Assembly (NCBI RefSeq): GCF_965641715.1
Contig: NZ_OZ282453.1
DNA from: Escherichia coli
GTDB taxonomy: Bacteria; Pseudomonadota; Gammaproteobacteria; Enterobacterales; Enterobacteriaceae
Length of the DNA stretch: 64,000 nucleotides
Direction: 5' to 3' (one strand)
The translations under genes and the position numbers were made by a program. Shown here one piece after another: positions 13,416-16,746 of the stretch. The notes beneath the pieces are model-generated. The model was given only the letters and a program-made list of their open reading frames with translations. It had not been told where the DNA came from and searched no databases. Numbering within the stretch: position 1 is the first letter of the stretch; every line of letters starts with the position of its first letter.

Positions 13416-14699
13416 TTAGTCTTTAGCTGTTGCATTTTGTTTATGAAACAGTTCACGGAACACCGGATAAATATCATCCTGGTCGCGGATGTGCTGCATC
13501 GCAAAGTTGTCGAAAGTAGATTGCAGATGCTCATATTCTCGCCACAATGTCTGATGTGCACGACGGGTAATTTCGATATAGCTGTAATAACGAACAACAG
13601 GTAATAATTTTTTCGCCAGGATTTCATGGCAAAGCGGAGAGTCATCGGCCCAGTTATCGCCGTCCGATGCTTGTGCAGCGTAAATATTCCACTGTGCCGG
13701 GTTATAACGCTCTTTCACTACCTCATCCATCAGTTTCAGGGCGCTGGAAACAATGGTGCCGCCAGTTTCCTGCGAGTAGAAAAACTCATGTTCATCGACT
13801 TCTTTCGCCTGGGTATGATGGCGGATGTATACGACTTCCACGTTCTTATACGTTCTGCTGAGGAACAGATACAGCAGAATATAAAAACGCTTAGCCATAT
13901 CTTTAGTGGATTGATCCATTGAACCGGAAACGTCCATCAGGCAAAACATCACTGCCTGGCTGGAGGGATCGGGCCGCTTCTCGTAGTTCTTGTAACGTAA
14001 ATCGAAGGTGTCAATAAAAGGGACGCGTTCAATTTTGGCACGTAATTCTGCAATTTCTTTGCGCAGACGTTCCTCTTCCAGCAGCTGCGCAGGTTCACTG
14101 TTGCTGATGATGGCCAAATTCTCTTCCAGTGCATGAAGTTCCCGCCGCTTGCCTGCCGTCATGGCTGTGCGTCGCGCCAGTGAGTTCTGCAATGAACGCA
14201 CAACGCTGATATTGGCCGGAACGCCGTTAGCGGTATAACCCGCCCGATGCGTTTTATATTCGGTCAGCTGGCGTTGTTGGTTTTGTTTCAGATTCGGTAA
14301 GGCCAAATCTTCAAAGAGCAGATCAAGATACTCATCTTTCGAAATCTGAAAGACGAATTCATCCTGACCTTCACCATCCTGGCTGGCCTGGCCCTGACCA
14401 CTGCCGGAACCTCCGCCGCCACCCTGGGGACGTTCAATTCGGTCGTTCTGGACGAAATGGTCATTGCCCGGATGTACGCGGTGGCGCAGGCCGCCACGCC
14501 CCTGATGAAACATCGGTTCGCTAATATCTTCCGTGGGAATGGATACGGACTCGCCGCTGTCGACGTCAGTCACCGAACGCTTATTAATGGCCTCGGAGAT
14601 CGACTGTTTAATTTGCGCTTTATAACGGCGTAAAAAACGCTGGCGATTCACCATGCTTTTGTTTTTGCCGTTCAGACGCCGGTCAATAAACCAGGTCAT
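13416..14699 (-). CDS. yeaH: DUF444 protein, partner of YeaG
   Basis: 427-aa ORF with a glycine-rich low-complexity segment; downstream of yeaG on the same strand. Confidence 0.9.
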
Positions 14700-14811
14700 A
14701 TGCCCCCCGTACTACATTTGCCAACTGTATGCTACGCCTGTGTTGCCGCTTCTCAGGCCCACGGTTCGCTGTCGTTGTAGGCCCGGTAGCATGTGTACCG
14801 GGCCAGGGTTG

Positions 14812-16746
14812 TTAAGACGATTTACGTACGCGCAAATACCATTCGCACAGTAAACGCACCTGTTTACGGGTGTAGCCTTTTTCCATCATACGGTCGACAA
14901 AGTCGTCGTGTTTCTTCTGCTCGTCGGTTGACGTTTTGGCGTTAAACGAGATAACCGGCAACAGCTCCTCGGTATTGGAGAACATTTTCTTCTCGATAAC
15001 CGTGCGCAGTTTTTCATAGCTGGTCCAGTTCGGATTGCGTCCGCTGTTATTCGCTCTGGCGCGCAGTACGAAGTTAACAATCTCGTTGCGGAAATCTTTT
15101 GGATTACTGATCCCCGCCGGTTTCTCGATTTTCTCCAGCTCGGCGTTAAGAGACTCGCGGTCAAACAGCTGCCCGGTATCCGGATCGCGATACTCCTGAT
15201 CCTGAATCCAGAAATCCGCGTAGGTAACATAACGGTCGAAAATGTTTTGCCCATATTCGGAATAGGATTCAAGGTAGGCCGTCTGGATCTCTTTGCCAAT
15301 AAACTCGGCATATTTCGGGATCAGATAACCTTTCAGGAACTCCAGATAGCGTTCTGCCTGCTCTTGTGGGAACTGCTCGCGCTCGATCTGCTGTTCCAGG
15401 ACGTAGAACAGATGGACCGGGTTTGCCGCCACTTCTACATGATCGAAGTTGAACACGCGGGAGAGGATCTTAAACGCAAAACGCGTCGACAGACCGTTCA
15501 TCCCTTCATCGACACCGGCGTAGTCACGATATTCCTGATACGACTTGGCTTTGGGATCGGTGTCTTTCAGACTTTCGCCATCATAAACCCGCATCTTTGA
15601 ATAAATGCTGGAGTTTTCTGGCTCTTTCAGGCGCGAAAGAATGGAAAAACGTGACAGTGTTTCGAGCGTGCCAGGGGCGCATGGGGCGTGAGTCAATTCA
15701 CTGTGATTAAGCAATTTCTCGTAGATTTTGATCTCTTCGGAAATGCGCAAGCAATACGGCACCTTCACGATGTAAACACGATCGAGGAAGGCTTCGTTGT
15801 TTTTGTTATTACGGAAAGTGACCCATTCGGACTCGTTCGAGTGGGCAAGAATAATCCCGTTGAACGGCAGGGCGGAGATACCTTCCGTCCCGTTGTAGTT
15901 ACCTTCCTGAGTGGCGGTTAACAAGGGATGCAGCACTTTAATCGGTGCTTTAAACATCTCAACGAATTCCATGATCCCCTGGTTGGCGCGGCACAGTGCG
16001 CCGGAATAGCCATAGGCGTCTGGGTCATTCTGCGCGTAGTGTTCGAGTTTACGAATATCCACTTTCCCTACCAGCGCGGAGATGTCCTGGTTGTTCTCAT
16101 CACCGGGCTCTGTTTTGGCGATGGCAATTTGTTGCAGAATTGACGGCCAGACCTTCACTACCCGGAACTTAGTGATATCGCCACCAAATTCATGCAGGCG
16201 TTTTGCCGCCCACGGCGACATGATGGTGCCGAGATAACGGCGAGGAATGCCATACTCTTTTTCCAGAATCTGCGCATCTTCCTGCGGATTGAAAAGACAG
16301 AACGGATGATCGTTGACCGGGCTACGCTCACCGTTGGCGCTCAATACATAAATCGGTACGAGCTGCATTAATGATTTCAGTCGCTCAGCAAGCGATGATT
16401 TACCCCCACCCACAGGCCCCAGCAGATACAGGATTTGTTTCTTCTCTTCCAGCCCCTGAGCCGCGTGTTTCAGATAAGAGACAATCTGTTCAATCGCGTC
16501 TTCCATGCCGTAAAACTCTTCAAACGCCGGATAACGTGCAATGACCCGGTTAGAAAAGAGTCGAGAAAGTCTGGGTTCCTGGGCTGTATCGACCATGACA
16601 GGCTCACCGATAGCCATCAATAGCCGCTCAGCCGCGTTGGCATAAGCACTGCGATCTTGCCGACAAGTGGTAAGAAACTCCTGCAGTGTGAACTCTTCGT
16701 CCTTGGCAGCTTCATATCGCTGGCGATAGTGATCGAATATATTCAT
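14812..16746 (-). CDS. yeaG: PrkA-family serine protein kinase
   Basis: 644-aa ORF with a P-loop GPVGGGKSS. Confidence 0.9.
   Translation of the reverse strand: MNIFDHYRQRYEAAKDEEFTLQEFLTTCRQDRSAYANAAERLLMAIGEPVMVDTAQEPRLSRLFSNRVIARYPAFEEFYGMEDAIEQIVSYLKHAAQGLEEKKQILYLLGPVGGGKSSLAERLKSLMQLVPIYVLSANGERSPVNDHPFCLFNPQEDAQILEKEYGIPRRYLGTIMSPWAAKRLHEFGGDITKFRVVKVWPSILQQIAIAKTEPGDENNQDISALVGKVDIRKLEHYAQNDPDAYGYSGALCRANQGIMEFVEMFKAPIKVLHPLLTATQEGNYNGTEGISALPFNGIILAHSNESEWVTFRNNKNNEAFLDRVYIVKVPYCLRISEEIKIYEKLLNHSELTHAPCAPGTLETLSRFSILSRLKEPENSSIYSKMRVYDGESLKDTDPKAKSYQEYRDYAGVDEGMNGLSTRFAFKILSRVFNFDHVEVAANPVHLFYVLEQQIEREQFPQEQAERYLEFLKGYLIPKYAEFIGKEIQTAYLESYSEYGQNIFDRYVTYADFWIQDQEYRDPDTGQLFDRESLNAELEKIEKPAGISNPKDFRNEIVNFVLRARANNSGRNPNWTSYEKLRTVIEKKMFSNTEELLPVISFNAKTSTDEQKKHDDFVDRMMEKGYTRKQVRLLCEWYLRVRKSS

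Follow-up and report, generated by a model that had tools for sequence, protein, structure and literature searches.

Repetitive extragenic palindromic (REP) elements are a known source of structures that protect RNA 3' ends (PMC6061677). The closest counterparts of the element described here lie within operons, namely the REP between malE and malF and REP325 in yjdMN. REP325 stabilises the gene upstream of it and partly attenuates readthrough, and tandem gene pairs that contain a REP show higher upstream/downstream expression ratios (bioRxiv 10.64898/2026.03.23.713779). Precise 3' ends right after stem-loops without a run of U are the signature of trimming by PNPase or RNase II up to a protective structure (PMC6061677). 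Here we analysed the spacer between yeaG and yeaH in a stretch of 64,000 nucleotides of the chromosome of Escherichia coli (assembly GCF_965641715.1, contig NZ_OZ282453.1), which we refer to as the window. In starved E. coli the two proteins, YeaG and YeaH, work jointly as a 'metabolic brake', and the amounts in which they are present influence how the cells recover. The hairpin in the spacer is a REP-type element of a known kind within a well-studied operon, and we put the probability that it serves as a 3'-exonuclease barrier, leaving a yeaG-only RNA and more yeaG than yeaH message, at roughly two in three (0.68).

With the malE-malF REP and REP325 the yeaG-yeaH element shares its nature as an extragenic, GC-rich palindrome with a GTAG/CTAC tag between co-transcribed genes, a hairpin free of a U-tract, an RNA 3' end close downstream and a more abundant upstream gene. 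It is, however, shorter than canonical REPs, with a palindrome of 25 nt, and its arms read GCCCGG/CCGGGC in place of the GCCGGAT/ATCCGGC of the E. coli Y/Z-type. It also differs from these REPs and bacterial interspersed mosaic elements (BIMEs) in that E. coli has a single copy of it, next to a decayed partner REP, and in that its role is a proposed one. The stem-loops of Dar and Sorek 2018 have in common with it the stable, U-less fold and the precise 3' end directly downstream, whereas the yeaG-yeaH site is internal to an operon and is followed by RNA that is G-rich rather than C-rich.

The core of the element, GGCCCGGTA-N7-TACCGGGCC, is a perfect 9-bp inverted repeat with a 7-nt loop at 14780-14804 (arms 14780-14788 and 14796-14804, loop 14789-14795). 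On the transcript strand its stem begins 7 nt past the yeaG TAA, and the CTACAA tail, in which the final base of the stem is included, runs to 14775 (GTAG on the plus strand). Such a dyad occurs once in the 64 kb, against 0.01 expected. Folded alone, as a 37-nt RNA, it reached -18.0 kcal/mol (z = -4.07), a stability that none of 200 shuffled sequences attained. The fold of the whole 112-nt spacer was no better than that of shuffled sequences (-37.9 versus a shuffle mean of -34.4, z -1.0, with 27 of 200 shuffles as good), and the same held for the spacer plus its flanks (z = 0.05), so that the idea of a large structured element was dropped. The preliminary description had proposed a structured spacer with several GC-rich dyads; one of them is real, and the remainder of the proposal reduces to this single strong local hairpin. 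The only other pairing in the spacer is a 5-bp GCCUG/CAGGC remnant, which varies among E. coli strains and is disrupted in several of them. A scan of 13000-17500 on both strands against Rfam (E<=1) gave no match. The tail after the stem, UACAACGA, contains 1 U in 8, and without a U-tract the hairpin is not an intrinsic terminator; a consensus terminator scan did not call it, while it called the terminator distal to yeaH. At loop position 14789 (minus strand) the window strain has C and K-12 MG1655 has T (CACATGC versus CACATGT). Each allele is frequent in the strains sampled, and they do not differ in predicted stability (-18 kcal/mol).

The identity of the element was judged by alignment with 10 related genera and with REPs of the window itself, where a canonical BIME at 39827-39919 with two inverted REPs (TGCCGGGGGCGCTGCGCTTGCCCGGCCTACA on the plus strand, TGCCTGATGGCGCTACGCTTATCAGGCCTACAA on the minus strand) served as reference. 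The dyad can be aligned end to end with the REPs at 39827-39919, minus 4-6 central bases, and both its tail CCGGGCCTACAA and its arms agree with the window's own canonical REPs. As for the GTAG tag, CCGGGC-CTAC-AA abuts the stem on the transcript strand, which corresponds to TTGTAGGCCCGG on the plus strand. A full-length REP (TGCCCGGTGGCGC..GCGCTTGCCGGGCCTACAA) lies at an equal distance from the stop codon in Enterobacter, Citrobacter, Pseudescherichia, Pluralibacter, Superficieibacter and RIT691; at this orthologous site, directly past the stop, the full-length form TGCCCGG(T/C)GGCGC...GCGCTT(A/G)CCGGGCCTACAA is also found in Escherichia. An inverted partner REP is kept in six genomes, intact in L003, L006 and L011 (L numbers are our handles for the loci compared) and more divergent in L005, L007 and L008. 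The best-kept copies, those of L003, L006 and L011, read GTAGGCCGGATAAGCG...CGCATCCGGC. L003 is a sister Escherichia genome, and compared with its intact second REP those of the window and of E. albertii carry an 11-nt deletion plus point changes (GTAG to GTGG, and others). From these comparisons, the best explanation is that the dyad is a shortened REP, the surviving first half of a former REP pair (BIME), and that an ancestor of the Escherichia/Citrobacter/Enterobacter group acquired this pair in its spacer. A search for CCGGGCCTAC in 83 loci found only the yeaG-yeaH site itself. A looser REP pattern found other REPs; it was built after the element had been seen and is illustrative only. The K-12 annotation record consulted lists no REP features, not even at malE-malF, and is uninformative for this site.

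In an alignment of 13 sequences the six core stem pairs were invariant and one pair covaried (UA/CG/UG/GU), with 92% of the cells paired as compared to 23-51% when the 3' partner was slid. The spacer is single-copy at >=96% identity in 5424 of 5426 complete E. coli genomes, and a 301-nt query across it gave one match in each of them, with at least 97.7% identity among the matches listed. In the most divergent E. coli among the strains listed the stem is intact, the sole stem change leaving a G.U pair. Polymorphism of the E. coli spacer falls mostly into the decayed second REP, and the loop also varies. The only length polymorphism in the sampled E. coli spacers is a 4-nt deletion (GAGA) in the decayed second REP of E. 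coli 23CRST010 (L084).

Published maps place an RNA 3' end directly behind this hairpin. In Term-seq data for MG1655 (Adams et al. 2021) the curated 'primary' yeaG 3' end lies reproducibly at 1868879 (mean count 1211) and 1868880 (762), which convert to window positions 14775 and 14774 (K-12 1868843 = window 14811), 75-76 nt upstream of yeaH. This end was seen in two of three growth conditions, judging by file position probably LB medium at an optical density (OD) of 2.0 and M63. An independent 3'-terminus (TRS) study lists 1868875-1868883 (peak 1868881) as 'alternative primary terminus in TU' (transcription unit) for yeaG. After conversion, the mapped ends lie 5-7 nt beyond the last paired base. 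RNA levels of the two genes are unequal, the DESeq base mean being 2660.75 for yeaG but 787.2 for yeaH (bioRxiv 10.64898/2026.03.23.713779), that is ~2.2-fold per kb in one table of pooled base means uncorrected for mappability or internal starts. A deep proteome reports ~434 copies of YeaG per cell, and YeaH is missing from the same table. The supplements of a SMRT-Cappable-seq study make no mention of yeaG or yeaH. Attenuation or processing of the transcript at the dyad, as proposed in the preliminary description, is thus in line with the published 3' ends and the unequal RNA, although not in the form of a classical attenuator, since a U-tract is lacking. Equal transcript coverage across the spacer together with the lack of a stable structure had been named as the outcome that would speak against the proposal; the published 3' ends, a yeaG excess and a stable hairpin are found instead.

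Joining the REP-type anatomy and the stability of the hairpin with the 3' end and the RNA levels documented in the literature, we propose the following mechanism. Starting 7 nt behind the yeaG stop codon, the yeaGH mRNA would form the 9-bp, -18 kcal/mol hairpin, free of a U-tract. When cleavage or termination at a more distal point has created a 3' end, exonucleases would degrade the transcript in the 3'->5' direction as far as the hairpin, and a stable RNA with yeaG alone would remain, its end lying 5-7 nt beyond the stem. With such an RNA protected, the yeaG message would exceed the yeaH message. The remainder of the spacer would consist of a decayed second REP and the conserved translation-initiation region of yeaH, where the small RNA (sRNA) SdsR would pair just upstream of the Shine-Dalgarno (SD) sequence and repress YeaH synthesis. 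The 80 nt past the hairpin are G-rich (18 C versus 27 G, with C/G of 0.4-1.0 in individual windows), which makes endonucleolytic cleavage or distal termination a more likely source of the ends to be trimmed than a nearby Rho utilization (rut) site. The Rho-termination table of Adams et al. does not list a yeaG-yeaH site; what it lists here is only an antisense event in yeaH. Because of the G-rich RNA and the absence from this table we favour blockage of exonucleases over local Rho termination; the underlying experiment was carried out in LB at OD 0.4, where yeaGH is weakly expressed, so that attenuation remains a live rival. A REP-type barrier would explain why yeaH is scarce in data on transcripts and proteins and, located beside an sRNA site, would provide a handle to change the YeaG:YeaH ratio, through the stem or the SdsR site, without altering either protein. 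It would add one more case of REP relics tuning expression within operons and opens no new question; the data most telling for function, on the 3' end and on SdsR chimeras, were already contained in published supplementary tables.

The spacer was further compared across 80 YeaG-encoding loci, one genome per species. In all 79 gammaproteobacterial loci where both genes were recovered yeaG precedes yeaH on the same strand, with spacers of 16 to 229 nt. A single hairpin of -12 kcal/mol or stronger is present in 48 of the 51 spacers of at least 45 nt. Among these 48, 29 are more stable than at least 95% of their shuffled versions, and a U-rich tail is found in only one case. None of the 28 spacers shorter than 45 nt has a hairpin. 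The hairpin sequences are unrelated between lineages and comprise REPs, elements like the enterobacterial repetitive intergenic consensus (ERIC; L004 and L019) and other palindromes. In Citrobacter sp. FP75 (L004:5024-5075, 202-nt spacer) and Serratia grimesii (L019:4966-5015, 179-nt spacer) the hairpin has ~-25 kcal/mol and the sequence CCCAGGAGCGTACA..GTACGTGAC(C)TGGGG, which we take to resemble the ERIC or intergenic repeat unit (IRU) repeat. The repeated occurrence of unrelated hairpins could mean that uncoupling of the two cistrons is selected for. In Enterobacteriaceae the hairpin and the SdsR site might then form one module, in which pairing of SdsR and Hfq at the yeaH start would trigger cleavage and exonucleases would trim the RNA as far as the hairpin. 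An mRNA with yeaG alone would be protected, and YeaG:YeaH would rise specifically in late starvation. We consider this quite unlikely; spacers may equally grow mainly by insertion of palindromic repeats.

Several points weigh against a barrier function. That the 3' end results from blocked exonucleases rather than from termination on site, and that the hairpin causes the imbalance, are steps that we infer. The RNA ratio comes from the single uncorrected table, and the absence of YeaH from the proteome may be an effect of detectability. The exact variant of the element is found a single time in the window and a single time per E. coli genome, which is why we speak of a REP relic and not of an active member of the family, and it lacks the central GGCGC/GCGC segment of canonical REPs. 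Finally, 28 of 79 species have a short spacer without any hairpin, showing that the operon can do without the hairpin, which could be a relic that is tolerated. In its strict form, this reading would make the hairpin a neutral remnant of a selfish repeat with no selected role, the 3' end an unavoidable by-product such as any stable stem in an mRNA would give, and the imbalance a result of other causes such as translation efficiency, SdsR or decay within yeaH. The decay and polymorphism of the second REP and the degraded copy of E. albertii point in the same direction as the hairpin-free spacers and the single-copy state of the variant. Against a neutral relic speak a stem that is perfectly kept in the 5424 E. 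coli genomes and in the sampled divergent strains while its neighbours vary, six core pairs that are invariant across genera in spite of differences in the 7-nt lead, in the loop and further downstream, and the recurrence of stable hairpins of unrelated sequence in the long spacers. We therefore regard it as a serious alternative that is nevertheless on the unlikely side.

Rather unlikely, too, is that the REP hairpin acts during transcription as a partial, factor-dependent attenuator, relying on Rho or on pausing, so that some of the polymerases would stop within the spacer or shortly behind it, with the mapped 3' end as the trimmed product of termination. A precedent exists in REP325, a partially Rho-dependent terminator within an operon (bioRxiv 10.64898/2026.03.23.713779), and attenuation associated with BIMEs is cited in PMC6061677 (Espeli et al. 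2001). Both the 3' end behind a U-less hairpin and the lower level of yeaH RNA would be compatible with attenuation. The absence of the site from the Rho table of Adams et al. argues against it, tempered by the weak yeaGH expression under the conditions used. The G-rich 80 nt after the hairpin would be a poor rut site, and just ~75 nt are left untranslated before yeaH initiation.

A translational role of the hairpin was considered by analogy. Liang, Rudd and Deutscher (2015) reportedly described control of translation by REPs whose hairpin lies within <16 nt of the stop codon. Here, the hairpin would stall terminating ribosomes, leading to mRNA cleavage, trans-translation and lower YeaG synthesis. 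The stem, starting 7 nt after the TAA, obeys this distance rule, but the imbalance favours yeaG, whereas a strongly negative action on the upstream gene would shift it the other way, and we regard ribosome stalling as improbable. A Rho-independent terminator or classical attenuator that splits the region into two transcription units, suggested by the GC-rich 9-bp stem and the RNA 3' end a few nt downstream, is highly improbable given the tail with its single U, the terminator scan that called the yeaH-distal hairpin but not this one, the lack of a promoter-like site for yeaH on the coding strand of the spacer, the treatment of yeaGH as one operon and SdsR chimeras that span the junction as an intra-transcript region.

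Next to the exonuclease barrier we propose, the spacer holds the initiation region of yeaH. Its last ~30 nt, AGTTGGCAAATG(C/T)AGTACGGGGGGCAT, are the only part of the spacer that is conserved across Enterobacteriaceae, and they correspond to the entire spacer in species where it is short, e.g. Brenneria and Rahnella. Neither the REP/BIME nature of the dyad nor this functionally conserved segment, which contains the ribosome-binding site (RBS) and the SdsR site, had been noticed in the preliminary description. The predicted duplex with SdsR comprises 15 bp with a 2-nt bulge, involves SdsR nt 17-33 and has -19.0 kcal/mol, placing it in the top 0.4% of 24-nt windows across the 64 kb; AGUUGGCA is a stretch of the pairing region on the yeaH side. 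Only the analysis with 24-nt windows was kept for these statistics. RNAduplex runs with full-length SdsR and the whole spacer returned meaningless end-to-end duplexes, and 80-nt windows were not discriminating (top 5.5%). The complementarity to SdsR is kept or extended in L002-L013 and L015, is reduced to a core of 10-11 bp in Serratia, Brenneria and Rahnella, and is absent in Erwinia, Pantoea, Dickeya, Vibrio and beyond. At two positions the E. coli site is weaker than that of most Enterobacteriaceae, with ACAG versus AAAG and UGUAG versus UGCAG, the latter giving a G.U pair.

Published in vivo data agree with this site. By RNA interaction by ligation and sequencing (RIL-seq) SdsR chimeras with yeaG.yeaH.IGT (1868803-1868944, p 4.9e-28) were found in all three replicates at both time points, with counts of 43/36/65 when nitrogen starvation set in and 64/98/149 after 24 h, and deletion of sdsR raised YeaH 2.1-fold (log2 fold change +1.06; PMC10954441). 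The predicted pairing site lies inside the chimera region. Hence, both extended complementarity near the RBS and in vivo chimeras, which together mark an Hfq/SdsR target site, are found for yeaH. As a supplementary figure of the RIL-seq paper gives its own prediction of a yeaH-SdsR duplex, the site is already in the literature and our analysis adds only its conservation pattern. With other targets of SdsR (RyeB), including the site in the yeaG 5' untranslated region (UTR), it shares pairing of the single-stranded 5' part of SdsR near the RBS, RIL-seq chimeras and an increase of the protein in the sdsR deletion. It differs from the yeaG 5' UTR site by its position in an intercistronic spacer and by the use of SdsR nt 17-33 instead of nt ~35-45; moreover, the yeaG 5' UTR site is validated by a reporter, whereas the yeaH site is backed by a predicted duplex and chimeras, and a reporter validation of it was not found.

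Table 1. Features of the yeaG-yeaH region, given in window coordinates
Feature	Position	Strand	Basis
Shortened REP, TG-GCCCGGTA-CACATGC-TACCGGGC-CTACAA	14775..14806	minus	perfect dyad, fold, REP alignment
Published yeaG RNA 3' end	14773..14775	minus	Adams et al. 2021, supplementary files 1 and 3; TRS study, supplementary file 4
Decayed second REP (GTGGGCCTGAGAAG/CGGC...CAGGC)	14736..14762	minus	alignment
SdsR pairing site AGUUGGCAAAUGUAG, -27..-13 of yeaH	14712..14726	minus	duplex prediction and RIL-seq
SD-like GGGGGG of yeaH	14703..14708	minus	read from sequence; G-run before ATG in Enterobacterales loci
yeaG-yeaH intercistronic spacer, 112 nt	14700..14811	minus	read from sequence
yeaG coding sequence, 644 aa, PrkA-family AAA+/kinase-like	14812..16746	minus	open reading frame (ORF) and translation
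yeaH coding sequence, 427 aa, DUF444 / YeaH-YhbH family	13416..14699	minus	ORF and translation
Published SdsR site in yeaG 5' UTR, -31..-22, CCTGTGCTAA	16768..16777	minus	green fluorescent protein (GFP) reporter and compensatory mutation (PMC10954441)
Terminator-like hairpin, 11-bp stem and T5, directly after yeaH stop	13378..13411	minus	terminator scan and sequence

The coordinates, the common strand, the protein families and the spacer length given in the preliminary description were confirmed by ORFs, Pfam and annotation. YeaG matches AAA_PrkA (PF08298, E 1e-187) and PrkA (PF06798, E 9e-71), and YeaH matches DUF444 (PF04285, E 4e-191) in one unbroken match over residues 4-421. The supposed Gly-rich insert of YeaH (residues ~92-112) sits inside this continuous match and is present in 14 of 14 orthologues from Escherichia to Alteromonas, and is thus no insert. 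The gene names are those of the RefSeq annotation of a 100% identical E. coli genome. With the prkA-yhbH pair of Bacillus the locus has both Pfam families, gene order and strand in common, and within the prkA-yhbH/yeaG-yeaH type nothing about it is unusual, as it is the E. coli type locus itself. The kinase label of the PrkA family is contested, as B. subtilis PrkA acts as an ATP-dependent protease (PMC9512850). The check that had been suggested, a phosphoproteomic study of a yeaG deletion, is already published (PMC8055822).

A terminator and promoter scan for a yeaH promoter in the spacer revealed no sigma-70-like site on the coding strand, and the conserved TTGGCA of the spacer fits neither sigma-70 nor sigma-54 spacing. 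Two small ORFs were rejected as spurious: one of 26 codons (14712-14792, minus strand) that runs from an ATG in the loop to a TAG 12 nt before the yeaH ATG, has no SD sequence, has its start hidden in the stem-loop and is not conserved in other genera, and one of 66 aa on the plus strand (14653-14853) that has no SD sequence either and is not conserved. Upstream of yeaG, a sigma-54-like TGGCATGAGAGTTGCT at 16850-16865 (minus strand), ~105-120 nt before the ATG, fits the published RpoN/NtrC promoter. A search for the sigma-54 pattern over the window gave 27 matches versus 28.9 expected from shuffled sequences, so that with no excess this candidate is consistent with the literature rather than independent evidence. 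At the other end, the intrinsic terminator-like hairpin behind yeaH is likely to be the end of the operon; the next gene on the same strand past it is a cdgI/yeaI-like ORF (13269..11794). The antisense event in the Rho-termination table of Adams et al. maps to MG1655 1870212 (minus strand), equivalent to window position ~13442 (plus strand) within the 3' end of yeaH, indicating that an antisense transcript enters yeaH from downstream.

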